Below are positions 40,924 to 46,230 of a stretch of DNA of 64,000 nt, one piece after another. The notes beneath the pieces are model-generated. The model worked only from the letters and a program-made list of their open reading frames with translations, was not told the DNA's origin and made no database searches. The stretch's first letter is position 1. Each line of letters begins with the position of its first letter. A program made the translations under genes and the position numbers. Location: NCBI GenBank assembly GCA_965261085.1, contig OZ253442.1:2728445-2792444 (forward strand), written 5' to 3'. This stretch comes from a bacterium. Lineage in GTDB: Bacteria; UBA8248.

Positions 40924-43209
40924 CTATTCACCATTTTTCTCGTTCAGGGCAGCCAACACTTTTTCCGGCGTTATCGGCAGCGACGTGATTCGTACGCCCA
41001 CGGCGTCATAGATAGCGTTCCCTATCGCCGCCGACGTTCCCAACTGCGCCATCTCGCCCAGCCCTTTCGCCCCATAGGGTCCCGAGGGATTTTCCGTCTC
41101 GATAAGCACGGCTTCGAGTTCGGGTAAATCCTGGGTCGTCGGCAGCTTGTAGTCGAGCCAGTTCGCGTTCACCGGCTGTCCGTCTTCGACTTCGAAATCC
41201 TCCATCATGGCGTAGCCCACGCCCATCAGCACGCCGCCGTCCAGTTGGCCCAGCGCGCCGGCTGGGTTCACGATGGTTCCGACGTCGTTCGTGCTGATGA
41301 CCCGCAAGACCTCGAACGCGCCGGTTTCGGTGTCCACTTCCACCTCCGCCACCTTGGCGCCGTAGGCATAGGCCGCGGACCAGTTTCCATAACCCGTCAC
41401 GGGGTCTGGCGTCTCGCTCGGCGAGTCATAAGAAGACGCCGTGTAGACGGCCTCGCTGCCCTCTTTTTCGTATATCTTCATGTAGGCTTCGCTGTGAGTC
41501 ACCTGCCGCTCGGGAGAACTGGTGACGAAAATTTTGCCCTTTCGAGCGTCCAGGTCGTTCGGGTCGCACTCGAGCAGTTCCGCCGCGCCCTTGAAGAGCA
41601 TGTTCTTCGCCTGGACCGCCGCCAGGCGCGTAGCCTCGCCGTCGATGGTCGTCGTACGGCTTCCCCGCACGCCCCACCCGTAGGGGTTCACCGCAGTATC
41701 CCCGTTGATGATACGAACATCCTCCACGCGTACACCCAACGCTTCGGCGCAAATCTGCGCGAGCGTGGTGTCCGAGCCGTTGCCCATCTCGATCGTGCCC
41801 GAGAGCAACTGCACGGTGCCGTCCTTGTTCATCTTGATGAACGCGCCCGCCGTCTCCGGTCCCATTGCGCGCGCGCCGGTGAAATGAACCGCCGCGGCCA
41901 GCCCGAAGCCGCGCTTTTTCCCGTTGCTGCTCGGTTGTTCCTGACGCCAGGGCACGCGCTTGACCGCTTCCTGTACGCACTCGGAAACACCGCAACTCGT
42001 GATCTTGGCCCCGATGATGGTGGTGTCGCCCTTCCTCACGAAGTTCTTGATGCGAAACTCCGCCGGGTCCATGCCGATTTCATCGGCGTGTTTCTCCATC
42101 GCGAGTTCAGAACCAAAGGAATAGCCGCCGTTGCCTATGCCGCGCATCGCGCCGCCGGGCGGCACGTTCGTGCAGACGACGTCGGCATGGTGGCGATAGG
42201 CCTTGTAGTTGTAGATGCTCCCGCCCATGTGCGCCGTGATGCCGCCGACCGCCGGGCCGTAATCGGAATAGCCGCCGTTTTCAACGACCATCCGGGTGTC
42301 GCGCGCCAGGAGCATGCCGTCCTTGTCCGTGGCGATGCGCCAGACGTGGAACTGCTTCGTCCGGTGGGTGCCGAGGAGGAACTCCTCTTCGCGGTCATAG
42401 TAGAATTTCACGGGAAGACCCAGCTTTTTCGCCGCGATGATCGAGAGGAAATCTATGTTGAACTTACTCGTCGCCTTTCCGCCGAACCCCCCGCCCACGT
42501 AGTTCGTGATCACGCGAATCTGGGCCTCTGGAATCTTGAGGAGCTTGGAGAAATACTGGCTCGAAAGACTCGGGCATTGCGAGGAGTTGTAGACCGTCAC
42601 GTCGCCCTTTTGCGACCATTCGGCGATGGAGACGTGCATCTCGAAAGAACCGTGCATCTGGCGCGAGGAGGACGTGGCCAACTCGCTCACGTGGTGAGCC
42701 TCGTCGAACATGCGGTCCACGTCGCCGAATTCCATGTGCTTGGTGAAGGCGATGTTATTCGGGTATCTGTCATGGATGATGGGAGCGCCCTCTTGCATCG
42801 CTTCTTTCGGATCGAAGACGGCGGGAAGATCCTCGTAGTCGACGTCGATCAGATCGAGCGCCTCTTTCGCGATGTCTTCTGAAATCGCCACGACGGCGGC
42901 CACCGAGTCGCCCACGTGTCGCACCTTGTCCGAGGCGAGGGGACGCTGATCGTAGCAAACGGGTACGACGCCCCACTCCACTTCCTCGGGGATGTCCTTG
43001 GACGTCATCACGAGTTTGACGCCGGGTAGCCTCTCGGCGCGGCTGGTGTCGATGTTCTTGATTCGCGCGTGCGGAAGTGGACTTCCCAGCAGTTTTCCGT
43101 GAAGCATTTTGGGCAACTGGAGGTCCAGGGTGTACATGGCCCGGCCCGTCACCTTTTCCGGCCCATCGACGCGAGGCACGCTTTTTCCGACGTATGAGAG
43201 TTCAGCCAT
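40924..43209 (-). CDS. Xanthine dehydrogenase/aldehyde oxidase family molybdopterin-binding large subunit
   Basis: 761 aa from ATG 43209 (GGAGG 6 nt upstream). a/b-hammerhead N-terminus (..PRVDGPEKVTGRAMY..), ..GGGFGGK.., ..GGAMRGIG.., ..GAKGLGE... It does not carry the CODH-type AYRCSFR/AYRGAGR loop. Confidence 0.9.
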   Translation of the reverse strand: MAELSYVGKSVPRVDGPEKVTGRAMYTLDLQLPKMLHGKLLGSPLPHARIKNIDTSRAERLPGVKLVMTSKDIPEEVEWGVVPVCYDQRPLASDKVRHVGDSVAAVVAISEDIAKEALDLIDVDYEDLPAVFDPKEAMQEGAPIIHDRYPNNIAFTKHMEFGDVDRMFDEAHHVSELATSSSRQMHGSFEMHVSIAEWSQKGDVTVYNSSQCPSLSSQYFSKLLKIPEAQIRVITNYVGGGFGGKATSKFNIDFLSIIAAKKLGLPVKFYYDREEEFLLGTHRTKQFHVWRIATDKDGMLLARDTRMVVENGGYSDYGPAVGGITAHMGGSIYNYKAYRHHADVVCTNVPPGGAMRGIGNGGYSFGSELAMEKHADEIGMDPAEFRIKNFVRKGDTTIIGAKITSCGVSECVQEAVKRVPWRQEQPSSNGKKRGFGLAAAVHFTGARAMGPETAGAFIKMNKDGTVQLLSGTIEMGNGSDTTLAQICAEALGVRVEDVRIINGDTAVNPYGWGVRGSRTTTIDGEATRLAAVQAKNMLFKGAAELLECDPNDLDARKGKIFVTSSPERQVTHSEAYMKIYEKEGSEAVYTASSYDSPSETPDPVTGYGNWSAAYAYGAKVAEVEVDTETGAFEVLRVISTNDVGTIVNPAGALGQLDGGVLMGVGYAMMEDFEVEDGQPVNANWLDYKLPTTQDLPELEAVLIETENPSGPYGAKGLGEMAQLGTSAAIGNAIYDAVGVRITSLPITPEKVLAALNEKNGE

Positions 43210-43503
43210 CACAACCTCCACTCGTTTGCGGCATCAAAGGGCATGCCGCAGGGCGCTTTTATGTTCTTGTCCTTTGCTTGATAATTGGATAGGTATGGCA
43301 ATTCGATCACATCGCAATCTCCCGGGAGTCGACAGAACACGATGTCACCTTCTTTGCATTCTATGAGCCTATCATAACAACTCCAGGGGCAAAACAAAAC
43401 CCCCCAAAAATCGACGACCGAGGCCCTTAAAACCCCTTCTGGGAACATCCCTACCGACTTTCTCGCCAAAAAAGTTATAAGCTTAGGAAGACCTAAAACG
43501 CCT

Positions 43504-44415
43504 TCAACAACCTATATCTCGCCTCATTGCCTGCAATGAGTCAGATGCTTTTACTCTAGCCAAGTCACCGAGAAATGTGTCAGTGATTTTTTCTTTCTGA
43601 CGTTCCGACATAGAAGCATGCTGTTCAGACTCATAATTTGCTTTAGCGTTCACATAATCGAAAAATTCACTAGGAACATTCTGGCGACCAGAAATTGTAC
43701 CGCCTTTGACGGCTACTCTCGTTCCCTGCCAGTCGCTGGGTCGATCATCGCGCAAAACTCCGAAGATGAAAAAACGAGGAAGTTTCATATAAACCATATG
43801 ACGATGGCTATTTTTTATTAAGTCTATGTGTATACTTCGCATCACATGTCGGTTGATGTTGTGTGGAATATCTCCTCCAGTGGCATTTACAGAGCCCACC
43901 AAGAATAAGTGCTGGCGAAATTGGCCCGGGTGTGGACGGAGACCAATGAGAAACTCCTTCCAAATTTTTTCAGCTCTACCAACAGACTCACGCTCTGCGT
44001 CAGAGTAATCATCCAACCCATCTCCCTCCATAAACCAACGGAGCACACGCCACGACAACGAAACGCAAAATCTTAAAAACCAAGGCCCATATCTAATTTG
44101 GGTGAGGCGATCTTCTACAAAAGGATAGAACAACTTACTCGCGAACTGCCTCTCGTTTTCACCCAAGATGCCCTCGCAAGAAGAACATAGCCAACGCTTT
44201 TTTTCACCATCTTGAACGCGCCTGTTCATTGTCTCAGCAAAACGGATATGTCCTGTTGCCGATGTCTCGCGCATCCAACGGAAAAGAAATGCAGGTAGAA
44301 CGTGACTGTTTTGTAATTCGCAATAAGAATCGCAAAGATAGCAGTTCCCTAATATCACCATATTTTCCCTCAAAACACTTAACGGAGCGTGTGAACCCGC
44401 CATGCAATATTCCAA
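43504..44415 (-). CDS. Hypothetical Cys-rich protein with an HNH/beta-beta-alpha-Me-like N-terminal motif, in a low-GC island
   Basis: 303-aa ORF. CYLCDSYCELQNSHVLPAFLF ... WLCSSCEGIL has the layout CxxC ... SH-h-h-P ... CxxC. The local GC (35-45% by hand count) is far below the flanks. The function is not established. Confidence 0.5.
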   Translation of the reverse strand: MEYCMAGSHAPLSVLRENMVILGNCYLCDSYCELQNSHVLPAFLFRWMRETSATGHIRFAETMNRRVQDGEKKRWLCSSCEGILGENERQFASKLFYPFVEDRLTQIRYGPWFLRFCVSLSWRVLRWFMEGDGLDDYSDAERESVGRAEKIWKEFLIGLRPHPGQFRQHLFLVGSVNATGGDIPHNINRHVMRSIHIDLIKNSHRHMVYMKLPRFFIFGVLRDDRPSDWQGTRVAVKGGTISGRQNVPSEFFDYVNAKANYESEQHASMSERQKEKITDTFLGDLARVKASDSLQAMRRDIGC

Positions 44416-44631
44416 AATCTAAATTATCGATCCAAACTTCGATCATTAAACATATATTACACTACACACACAGAATGAATTCTAAAATTTATACATGAGG
44501 CCATGTTCGCCACTTTGAGAAATCCTCAGTTCCGCTTTCTCCCCTTCGGCTTGTGGTGTATCATCCGCCGTATTGAACCCGAAAAATGAACTTTCGGATC
44601 ACCCCATAGACACCAAAACTGGAGTAACGCA

Positions 44632-45378
44632 ATGCCCATTCGTTTCGATTTCCAGGGCCGAAAGGTCATCCTCACGGGCGCGGCGGGCGCCATGGGAAGC
44701 CGCATCCTGCAAGGATACCTGGAAGCCGGCGCCAAGGTTTTCGCCACCGACAGGGAAGGCGAGACCTTCGGCGCAATAGACGGCCCGTCCGATCAACTCT
44801 TCAAGCTCCCCTGCGATTTGGCCGACGTGGACGCCATCCGCACCACGATGCGCACGGCTCTCGAGTGGCTGGGCGGCTGCGACGTACTGGCGAACGTGGC
44901 CGGCTACATGCCGATTCGCCCCCCGATGGAACTCGAAGAAGCGGACTGGGAGGTAGTGCTCGGCGTGAACCTGCTCGCCCCTTATTTCTGCATTCAGGAG
45001 ACCATCGAGGCGCTCAAGGCCTCTGGCACGGGACGCATCATCAGTTTCGCCTCCATCGCCGGTAAAATGGGGGGCATCGGCCCGAATCTCACCTACGCCG
45101 CCGCCAAGGCGGGCCTGCTCGCCATGACGTTCAACCTGGCGCGGGAACTCGCCAAGACGGGCGTGACGATCAACACCATTCAGCCGGGCCCGGCCGATAC
45201 GGGCCTTCACTTCCAGTCCCCGCCCGAGATGCTGGTGAACGCAGCGAACGCCCACCCTATGGGCAGGCTCACGACGCCCGAGGACGTGTGGCACACCGTC
45301 TTGTTCCTAACGAGCGAGGAGGCCGCCCACATCAACGGAGAAGCCGTGGACGTGAACGGCGGTTTCTGGACGGATTAG
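44632..45378 (+). CDS. SDR family oxidoreductase
   Basis: TGAAGAMG, a Ser ... YAAAKAG catalytic region, and ..INTIQPGP... Confidence 0.9.
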   Translation: MPIRFDFQGRKVILTGAAGAMGSRILQGYLEAGAKVFATDREGETFGAIDGPSDQLFKLPCDLADVDAIRTTMRTALEWLGGCDVLANVAGYMPIRPPMELEEADWEVVLGVNLLAPYFCIQETIEALKASGTGRIISFASIAGKMGGIGPNLTYAAAKAGLLAMTFNLARELAKTGVTINTIQPGPADTGLHFQSPPEMLVNAANAHPMGRLTTPEDVWHTVLFLTSEEAAHINGEAVDVNGGFWTD

Positions 45379-45393
45379 AAGGAGGAGAACACC

Positions 45394-46230
45394 ATGTCGA
45401 GTGACAACCCGAAAGGCTATGCGAATCCCGACCTGCTCTGGTCGGTCGAACAACTCAAAGAGCGCATGGACGACCCGAACTTAAGAATCATCGACACCCG
45501 CCCCGGCGAGCGCTACACGATGGGCCACATCCCCGGCGCGCGTCATTTCGACGTCTACGGCGTGAACAGCGATGATTCGGACGAGGCTCCGCTCAGGAAT
45601 TTCTTCTCCATGTGGGCGTTTTTGCTGGGAAACCGGGGGGTGTCGTTCGAGAACACCATCGTCTTCTACGACGACTTCGTCGGCAACACGAGCGTGCGCG
45701 GCTTCTGGATGCTGGAGCTTTTCGGCCATAAGGACGTCCACATCCTGGACGGCGGCTACGGCGCATGGGAGCGGGCGGGCTTCGAGACGACGCGGGACGC
45801 CGAAGTTCCCCGGGCCGTCCCCTTCAAAATGGCGTTCGAGCCGCACCGCCTCGCCACGCGCGAGGACGTACTGGCGGCCATCGAGGATGACAACCACATG
45901 CTGCTCGACACCCGCTCGGTAGAGGAATGGGAGGGGCGGAGCATGCGCGCCAAACGAGGAGGAATCATCCCAGGAGCCGTCTGGCAGGAGTGGCTCCAGC
46001 ACTTGACGCCCGAGGGCGAGATGAAGCCCGCGGACGAACTGAGAGCGCAGTTCGCGGCTATCGGGATCACGCCCGAAAAAGAAGTAACCGCCTACTGACA
46101 GACGGGCTACCGTGCGGCGCACGGTTACTTCGCCCTGCGGCTTCTGGATTACCCCAAAATCAGAAACTACATGAGTTCCTGGAAGGAATGGGGCAATCGC
46201 GAGGACACGCCCATCGCACAGGCCCAGTAG
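45394..46230 (+). CDS. Two-domain rhodanese (thiosulfate/3-mercaptopyruvate sulfurtransferase-like), predicted selenoprotein (TGA 46096..46098 read as Sec at the catalytic position)
   Basis: The track ORF stops at TGA 46096. The same frame continues [46 protein letters not shown](46228..46230). This gives ...EKEVTAY-U-QTGYRAA..., the canonical active-site loop C-x-x-G-x-R with TGA at the Cys. A strong AGGAGGAG SD precedes ATG 45394, and a hairpin lies 11 nt after the TGA. Confidence 0.8.
46104..46135 (+). promoter_or_regulatory. Candidate bacterial SECIS hairpin for the rhodanese UGA
   Basis: ACCGUGC-GGC-GCACGGU forms a perfect 7-bp stem (46109..46125) with a G-rich apex. It is flanked by a possible lower helix GGGC (46104..46107) / GCCC (46132..46135). 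The apex lies about 20 nt after the UGA. Confidence 0.4.

Follow-up and report, generated by a model that had tools for sequence, protein, structure and literature searches.

A low-GC single-gene cassette between an xdh-like operon and an SDR gene, from a large unannotated family with a putative HNH-like module

Why should one gene of foreign composition stand alone between two native transcription units? The question is raised by a 64,000-nucleotide stretch of bacterial DNA (the window; positions 2,728,445 to 2,792,444 of contig OZ253442.1, assembly GCA_965261085.1, GTDB lineage UBA8248), where GC content falls in the spacer between an xdh-like operon and a divergently transcribed SDR gene. 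A preliminary description of this DNA had reported a low-GC island at 43222-44631 holding a solitary 303-residue HNH-like protein, and had proposed either a single-gene defence element or the remnant of a mobile element. The island is real. GC is 44.5% across 43222-44631 and 44.6% in the open reading frame (ORF), whereas the window as a whole has 58.9% and the genes on either side ~62%. Counted in 200-nt intervals, GC in the low patch runs from 34.5% to 48%, with the minimum of 34.5% at 44300-44499 and 41-48% over most of the gene; the range of 35-45% given earlier caught the dip and was slightly low for most of the island. With the boundaries corrected as described below the observation is confirmed: the gene is a single-gene accessory cassette, under purifying selection and horizontally mobile, from a very large unannotated family. 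The HNH-like reading of its product is supported at the superfamily level and a defence reading is plausible.

The bounds of the insert were obtained by alignment to 11 genomes of the same genus in which the site is empty and the xdh large-subunit gene and the SDR gene are adjacent. The comparative synteny that had been suggested for this purpose gave an insert smaller than the island, and the two principal features are as follows.

43468 to 44531 (approximate), no strand: inserted single-gene cassette, ~1.07 kb, GC 0.43, missing in the 11 same-genus genomes.
43504 to 44361, minus strand: gene for a 285-aa protein (P0001), stop codon included, placed from the ORF list, the called product and the alignment of homologs.

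The distance between the xdh and SDR genes is 1402-1415 nt in four occupied loci versus 329-334 nt in the 11 empty relatives, so the host spacer is ~330 bp and the insert has the length of exactly one gene. An 86-codon ORF (ORF86, 43209-43469) had been counted in the island. However, its region is native spacer and lies outside the insert, because the short empty spacers already hold the homologous sequence, at 82-93% nucleotide identity in all 11 relatives. Searches of the locus revealed no integrase, transposase domain, tRNA-type feature or Rfam family, and no terminal inverted repeats of the insert were found.

The gene is single-copy in its own genome and a homolog was found in only 1 of 22 congeners, with 36% identity and elsewhere in the genome. 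This sole other homolog in the genus (L002, at G014:C1:261-992) aligns over residues 61-302. It sits in a 484-aa open frame, at the beginning of an 8.3-kb contig, and could reflect either a gene fusion or misassembly at the contig end. Three further metagenomic lineages are occupied at the same site with identical junctions, their products having amino acid identities of 84% (L015), 73% (L016/L017) and 66% (L099). Three clades of the flanking-gene tree contain occupied genomes, and each of them also has empty-site sisters; L015, for example, is sister to the empty L012 with 100% support. These occupied relatives are low in GC at the gene as well, as expected of the accessory gene of foreign composition that had been proposed.

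Presence and absence were also followed at the strain level using the Logan contigs of sample S1, from which the window derives (runs X1-X3). A unitig carrying the occupied site has depths of 6.5, 5 and 12.3 in the three runs and an empty-site unitig has depths of 4.2, 13.2 and 25.2. The empty-site unitig joins 43413 to 44532 with 38 nt between them, i.e. 43414-44531 is replaced. Given that the two depths add up to the depth of the flanks, strains in this sample with flanks at least 98% identical differ by the cassette. Over 42900-44900 the two coexisting strains are 98-100% identical in their flanks, and the ratio of occupied to empty varies between runs. The 38-nt segment of the empty strain differs from both copies of a repeat that borders the insert in the occupied strain, described below; therefore the empty form is not the product of a recent simple excision.

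The four alleles at this site have diverged deeply and have been exchanged. The reading frame is intact in all four, as it is in hundreds of homologs, and dN/dS among them is 0.16-0.26 for the ORF. In windows of 30 codons it is 0.06-0.46, and no such window has an omega above 1, as would be looked for under diversifying selection. The gene is thus under purifying selection. Between the window and L016 the flanks have a dS of 0.07-0.08 and the ORF a dS of 0.675, whereas between the window and L015 the values are 0.34-0.39 and 0.37; the gene tree conflicts with the flanks. Sliding identity showed that the region upstream of the ORF in the window is like that of L016 (92-95% identity, with 50-56% to L015) and that the body of the ORF is like that of L015 (85-93%, with 62-88% to L016). 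The breakpoints lie at ~44280-44340 and ~43380-43500, and the upstream region has been exchanged independently of the ORF body. This mosaic pattern shows that homologous recombination in the conserved flanks swaps the alleles and also accounts for their gain and loss. In composition the four alleles agree: GC at third codon positions (GC3) is 0.38-0.42 in all of them and 0.79-0.87 in the flanking genes, host genes having ~0.82, so the gene does not have native composition in the occupied relatives either, and third-position changes among the alleles are balanced (41 AT-to-GC and 39 GC-to-AT). The alleles are at a compositional equilibrium of their own without amelioration to the host. The locus is a clean natural example of accessory-gene turnover, with one site, deeply divergent mosaic alleles, strain-level presence and absence, and no amelioration. 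A second empty-site example was sought in Acinetobacter (L097) and no clean one was found, the neighbouring gene itself being strain-specific.

A target segment, running on the gene strand from AGGGGAGAAAGCGGGAGGGG to ATTTCCCGAAATG, is present once in empty sites and once at each end of the insert in occupied loci.

43433 to 43467, no strand: direct repeat copy A, the xdh-proximal copy of the duplicated target, which aligns to copy B and to the single empty-site copy.
44510 to 44544, no strand: direct repeat copy B, the SDR-proximal copy, collinear with the empty-site AGGGGAGAAAGCGG... on the gene strand.

The duplication is imperfect. Both copies in L016 have a 14-mer core, AGGGGAGAAAGCGG, without a mismatch, and beyond the core similarity is degenerate over 35-50 nt; every sub-sequence of the empty site persists in occupied loci, the copies having diverged. 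The preliminary description had seen no integrase, no tRNA and no obvious direct repeats. It was right on the first two and, the repeats at 43433-43467 and 44510-44544 being so degenerate, fair on the third. Across the family, flanking direct repeats are not enriched (6 of 75 loci, with ~4 expected), and the strong cases elsewhere are integron attC sites. No attC-like site is present in the window or its three same-site alleles, and the copy in the window lies outside any integron. An insertion sequence, transposon or MITE was considered and ruled out by the lack of a transposase domain, the lack of terminal inverted repeats and a duplication of 35-50 nt, which is too long.

The ORF at 43504..44415 on the minus strand, and the motifs quoted from it, are present exactly as claimed. 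The length of the product needs correction: the protein is most likely 285 aa from an ATG at 44361 and not 303 aa. The start at 44361 was chosen because the public product of the gene callers (285 aa) and the aligned homologs begin at this Met, because a GAGGG Shine-Dalgarno sequence lies at 44371-44367, 5 nt before the ATG, and because the additional 18 codons are not conserved in L015. Two features lie upstream of this start.

44362 to 44415, minus strand: the 18 additional N-terminal codons of the 303-aa reading, with conservation limited to the nearest allele.
44372 to 44509, minus strand: AT-rich upstream region of the cassette, GC 0.345-0.385.

The extension is 94% identical in L016 and has only 57% nucleotide identity in L015, and from this comparison it is probably a 5' leader rather than coding. 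The AT-rich region is presumed to be the cassette's own promoter or leader. A promoter scan of it found no sigma-70 consensus, and a terminator scan found a single terminator-like site, on the wrong strand, at the xdh start. On the other side of the gene, ORF86 is doubtful as a real gene because its tblastn match is broken across frames in about half of the empty-site relatives; a promoter or leader for the xdh-like operon, or a sequence that is only partly coding, is a likelier identity for the region (43209-43469, or 43222-43413). The ORF86 product has no match in Pfam, NCBIfam or PADLOC, and an Rfam scan of the ORF86 region and the cassette matched no family, riboswitches including the Moco type being among those not matched. 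Further out, downstream of the SDR gene, a rhodanese ORF (45394-46230 of the window) ends at the TGA at 46096-46098, and the equivalent gene in L016/L017 is split by the gene callers into products of 164 aa and 89 aa.

What the protein might do was approached through its two parts.

44107 to 44361, minus strand: putative N-terminal His-Me finger (HNH)-like zinc module, residues 1-85, from conservation, hhalign, sub-threshold Pfam similarities and predicted secondary structure.
43507 to 44106, minus strand: C-terminal domain of ~200 aa, residues 86-285, without detectable relatives.

The key residues of the module are C7xxC10, S19-H20-x-x-P23, an Omega-loop at 21-53 with N46 and Q50-D51-G52, C59xxC62-E63, and E70. 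The two CxxC pairs flanking the S-H-x-x-P element, as first noticed in the one sequence, are conserved across the family when counted in 112 diverse representatives. C7, C10, H20, C62 and E70 are found in 112/112, Q50 and R40 in 111/112, C59 in 110/112, D51 in 109/112 and S19 in 104/112; E63 is Glu in 111 and Asp in one, N46 is Asn in 99 and Asp in 10, and R48 is invariant or nearly so. The AlphaFold2 (AF2) models predict a beta strand at 17-20, a loop with a helix at 24-33, a second strand at 54-58 and a helix at 60-82, which matches the beta-beta-alpha core of the His-Me finger with H20 ending the first strand. A zinc knuckle is suggested by alignment of the Cys pairs to the CxxC pairs of HNH_5.

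The first 95 residues of the family were compared using hhalign with alignments of real HNH_5 (30) and HNH_2 (10) domains from related genomes, with these results.

Module against HNH_5: probability 83%, P 8.7e-6.
Module against HNH_2 (51 columns, the whole motif): probability 66%, P 5.8e-5.
Reversed profile against HNH_5 and HNH_2: P 0.055 and 0.65.
Best of 30 column shuffles against HNH_5 and HNH_2: P 0.0049 and 0.11.
Positive control, HNH_2 against HNH_5: probability 78%, P 1.7e-5.

The module resembles HNH_5 and HNH_2 about as closely as HNH_2 resembles HNH_5, and far more closely than the shuffled and reversed controls do. The alignment pairs S19-H20-x-x-P23 with (D/A)H(I/V)xP, D51-G52 with the 'NG' of HNH domains and C59xxC62-E63 with CxxC-(N/H). 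When the 112 members were scanned leniently against Pfam, HNH_2 (10 members) and HNH_5 (9) were the models touched most often, with all matches below threshold, the best E-values for HNH_5 and HNH_2 being 0.0033 and 0.013. Six-frame searches of the organism's own genome with HNH_5 and HNH_2 gave matches in other genes only. Published criteria for the His-Me finger (PMC5714182) are a nearly invariant His where the first core strand finishes, an Omega-loop, polar residues in the helix and, as an optional treble-clef decoration, a zinc knuckle lying between a hairpin before the core and the N-terminus of the helix. The layout of the module fits these except that Glu replaces Asn/His and Ser precedes the His; its Omega-loop at 21-53 is elaborate with a helix inside, and E70 is the second conserved polar residue of the helix. 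The HNH-like fold first suggested thus finds support in the profile similarity, and departs from the pattern where the last HNH residue, N or H, is replaced by Glu. From alignments and models it is concluded that the module is probably a divergent member of the His-Me finger superfamily which stands outside every curated HNH family.

The remaining ~200 aa had been called an uncharacterised domain, and so they remain: no Pfam, NCBIfam or PDB sequence match and no fold relative was found for this part, and neither an SRA domain nor any other known reader of modified bases was detected in it by Pfam or fold searches. It has conserved residues of its own (Y91, F98, W104, R105, W134, H151, N170, R175 and K193), among which the polar R105, H151, N170, R175 and K193 are near-invariant. 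The AF2 model of the full-length protein is confident, with a pLDDT of 92.8 and a pTM of 0.90.

No match to the 303-aa protein was found in Pfam, NCBIfam or PADLOC. A PDB sequence search gave no match with either the single sequence or a profile. One full-length match was obtained, to PHROG 26326, whose function is unassigned (E = 1.4e-48, 166.7 bits, residues 17-300 against profile positions 7-298 of 303). The family is large, with 367 word-indexed matches and, in a second protein search, at least 1,859 clusters at 50% identity. All named members are labelled 'hypothetical protein' and no literature describing the family was found. A set of 80 loci drawn from one-genome-per-species data includes Nitrospirota, all classes of Proteobacteria, Acidobacteriota, Planctomycetota, Verrucomicrobiota, Omnitrophota, Gracilibacteria and others. 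The gene is carried by 15 plasmids, haloarchaeal and Bacillus plasmids among them, and 50,697 phage records gave one partial match. Its GC lies below that of its flanks by a median of 8.4 points, the difference being below -5 in 54 of 76 loci. Across 77 loci there is no conserved partner or neighbour gene; the biggest cluster of neighbours, in 7 of 77, is local synteny with an HtrA-type protease.

In three Xanthomonadales genomes (L039, L042 and L043) the gene is a 965-bp integron cassette. The attC sites of these cassettes run from GCCTAAC through an imperfect palindrome with compensatory changes to GTTAGGC, and arrays hold up to ~30 attC per 12.8 kb. The ORF begins 8-20 nt past an attC and the following attC lies 0-9 nt beyond its end, and in L040 an 82-nt attC follows the stop codon immediately. 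Given this carriage by integrons elsewhere, the gene is a self-sufficient single-gene mobile unit, and it travels on several kinds of vehicle. The arrays themselves (L039:1-12840, L042:5190-9910 and L043:5950-6950) are chromosomal integron arrays in Novilysobacter and Luteimonas. Many of their cassettes are just 330-500 bp and some attC types recur in the opposite orientation; the array in L039, with its ~30 sites, has an attC of the form GCCTAAC ... AAGCCGAxxxxGCTTCGCxxxxCGGCTTAA ... GTTAGGC. Other homologs have neighbours of a different character. Two at ~50% identity lie in conflict-type contexts, one (L102:1-7800) beside a DUF4007 protein, a class-V aminotransferase (cysteine-desulfurase-like) gene, a 1128-aa protein and transposase fragments, and one (L100:1-7765) beside an AlpA-type regulator and type I restriction-modification genes (HsdM, HsdS). 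The annotated homolog on a Halanaeroarchaeum plasmid (L134:6001-7227) has 408 aa, its C-terminus extending ~125 residues beyond that of the bacterial proteins, and lies near a gene with a SocA-type antitoxin domain.

The reading that we favour is of a mobile stand-alone nuclease with a one-protein defence role, and we hold it tentatively, as coming near to an even chance of being correct without quite reaching it. Judging from the profile comparison and the model, residues 1-85 would fold as a Cys4 zinc-knuckle-stabilised His-Me finger (HNH-superfamily) module. H20, which closes beta-1, would act as general base. One ligand of a divalent metal would be E63, in the opening turn of the core helix at the position of the Asn or His of HNH enzymes; Glu is chemically able to bind metal, though non-canonical at this position. 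The other ligands would be E70, seven residues further on the same helix face, and possibly D51 or N46 of the long Omega-loop. From the behaviour of the gene, the protein would be a stand-alone metal-dependent nuclease and the benefit to the cell would be defence by one protein against incoming DNA, either restriction-like or abortive-infection-like. The novel C-terminal domain could supply substrate choice, regulation or the gating of activity. Such a solo role would account for the gene standing alone in its cassette, unaccompanied by a partner. Among the unknown-function cassettes of mobile integrons that have been tested, at least one third gave phage resistance (10.1101/2024.07.02.601719).

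Several results weigh against a defence nuclease. No curated HNH model reaches threshold and the protein has no Pfam match at E <= 1. The position of the canonical Asn/His metal ligand is occupied by Glu (E63), and the position of the catalytic His is preceded by Ser and not by Asp, Glu or His. Modelled alone (pLDDT 79.8), the module gave no significant fold match, T4 endonuclease VII being found with a TMq of 0.39 and E = 2, and the full model had no neighbour when searched with Foldseek against PDB and BFVD (best E 0.6 and 0.17, TM <0.2). The PADLOC check that had been proposed returned no known or candidate defence model: PADLOC-DB v2 gave zero matches for the protein and a lenient scan of the 112 members gave noise only. 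Pfam and PADLOC tallies over the 77 loci showed neighbours that are mostly housekeeping genes, with no defence-island signal; integrases, methyltransferases, one SIR2 and one Schlafen-type helicase are scattered among them.

The main rival is a selfish, self-propagating nuclease gene, that is, either a free-standing homing endonuclease that would cut the empty spacer and be copied in during repair, or a minimal one-gene element whose HNH-like enzyme would make staggered nicks ~40 nt apart and so leave the long target duplication. In its favour, the homing-type pattern of presence and absence at one precise site among close relatives holds here, the same insertion site is used in three separate clades that each have empty-site sisters, occupied and empty alleles occur together in one sample, and the unit is a single gene flanked by a long target duplication. 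The GC3 of ~0.40 with balanced AT and GC changes is as if the alleles had diverged outside the host genus and then re-entered the site, and tracts of flank have been co-imported. However, the target is duplicated and so no recognition site would be destroyed, the flanks adjoining the insert mostly follow the species tree, and the gene is single-copy in the genome. Nor are flanking repeats enriched across the family, and elsewhere the gene is moved in trans by integron integrases. It is nearly missing from phages, where free-standing homing genes are common, and steady purifying selection is at odds with the cycle of invasion and decay expected of homing genes. A selfish gene is therefore distinctly unlikely in our estimation. 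An accessory protein without an immune role, such as a zinc-finger regulator binding DNA or RNA or an enzyme of repair or processing, would have an HNH-like module that is altered or inactive, with any activity in the C-terminal domain. We consider this unlikely, if slightly less so than a selfish gene. Replacement of both the canonical N/H ligand and the acidic residue before the catalytic His is in its favour, as are the lack of a significant structural match to nucleases, the near-invariant polar residues of the C-terminal domain and the lack of association with defence islands. On the other hand, the invariance of H20, with E63, E70, D51, Q50, R40 and R48 invariant or nearly so around the zinc site, is a pattern typical of an active site rather than of a finger with a purely structural role, and the patchy distribution at the strain level, foreign composition and carriage by cassettes and plasmids argue against a housekeeping role.

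Very improbable, in our view, is the toxin of an addiction or toxin-antitoxin-like module with a small antitoxin, protein or RNA, hidden in the AT-rich upstream region. There is a leader of 110-150 nt, rich in AT, in which it might lie, a 44-codon ORF is called beside the L015 allele, and integron arrays often hold toxin-antitoxin cassettes. Against this, the alleles do not share a conserved upstream region (the window and L015 are 50-56% identical there), no conserved small neighbour is present in the 77 loci, the attC spacing in the integron cassettes leaves no room for a partner and Rfam finds nothing. Least credible of all, to the point of rejection, is the idea of a once-mobile element or prophage now decaying without function; a mobile-element remnant had been one of the two options offered at the outset. 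Foreign composition and the lack of an integrase or other mobility gene nearby would suit a remnant, but the frame is intact in all four alleles and hundreds of homologs with the low dN/dS given above, the AF2 model is confident and the insert is exactly one gene long.

A more novel reading can also be stated, which we regard as doubtful. The family would be a hitherto unrecognised class of compact one-protein systems in which a variant His-Me finger (His ... Glu ... Glu in place of H-N-H) is joined to a C-terminal domain of new fold, acting either as a widespread single-gene immune nuclease, stocked in integron arrays and dispersed as orphan cassettes, or, in the bolder form, as a self-inserting one-gene element. 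In the latter case the gene would be a minimal element whose nuclease makes widely staggered nicks and leaves the target duplications of 35-50 nt; self-insertion would explain both why this one spacer has been entered more than once and why the alleles have not acquired the composition of the host. The interest of the family lies partly in its size, with clusters in bacteria and on archaeal plasmids that are unnamed in Pfam, NCBIfam, PADLOC and PDB, and partly in a predicted atypical HNH-like catalytic constellation joined to a confidently modelled domain without a structural neighbour. If the protein is indeed a nuclease with a new sensor or specificity domain, then a compact single-gene module would be added to the repertoire of defence or selfish elements, possibly with a new DNA-recognition fold.

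Among known systems, HNH_5 (PF14279) and HNH_2 (PF13391) share several features with the module. A CxxC knuckle comes before a strand whose last residue is an invariant His, with hydrophobic-x-Pro after it; the core helix has another CxxC at its N-terminus and carries conserved polar residues; and the Omega-loop is elaborate. The family differs from them in falling below all Pfam HNH gathering thresholds, in E63 for Asn/His, in Ser before the His, in an Omega-loop of 33 residues including a helix and in its fusion to an unrelated domain of ~200 aa. T4 endonuclease VII uses an acidic residue of the helix in catalysis. This enzyme (PDB 2qnf) is likewise a zinc-stabilised His-Me finger with a long core helix and gave the top query TM-score, 0.39, but the match is not significant (E = 2, probability 0.15) and it is a phage junction resolvase of 157 aa with no C-terminal domain. 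Free-standing phage HNH homing genes of the I-HmuI type are similar in being solitary HNH-type genes between conserved genes, present or absent at a single site and flanked by tracts of recombination. They are unlike the present gene, whose target is duplicated and not disrupted and which is chromosomal, nearly missing from phages, under long-term purifying selection and single-copy. PHROG 26326 is matched full-length by the protein, yet it is without annotation and the family is very rare in sequenced phage genomes.

The modification-dependent (Type IV) SRA-HNH restriction enzymes TagI and ScoMcrA combine an HNH-type nuclease and a separate substrate-choosing domain in one protein, as is predicted for this family; enzymes of this kind act without a methylase or other partner gene and are accessory, with a patchy occurrence (PMC6212794). 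The order is reversed here, the nuclease-like module being N-terminal, and no SRA or known reader domain is detectable. Lastly, there are the phage-resistance integron cassettes (BRiCs) and the defence cassettes of chromosomal integrons (10.1101/2024.07.02.601719; PMC12614218). The former work describes no BRiC of HNH type, and the copy in the window differs from these cassettes in having no attC and lying outside an integron. The likeness is that of compact single-gene cassettes of unassigned function, and in the Xanthomonadales members of the family are bona fide integron cassettes.

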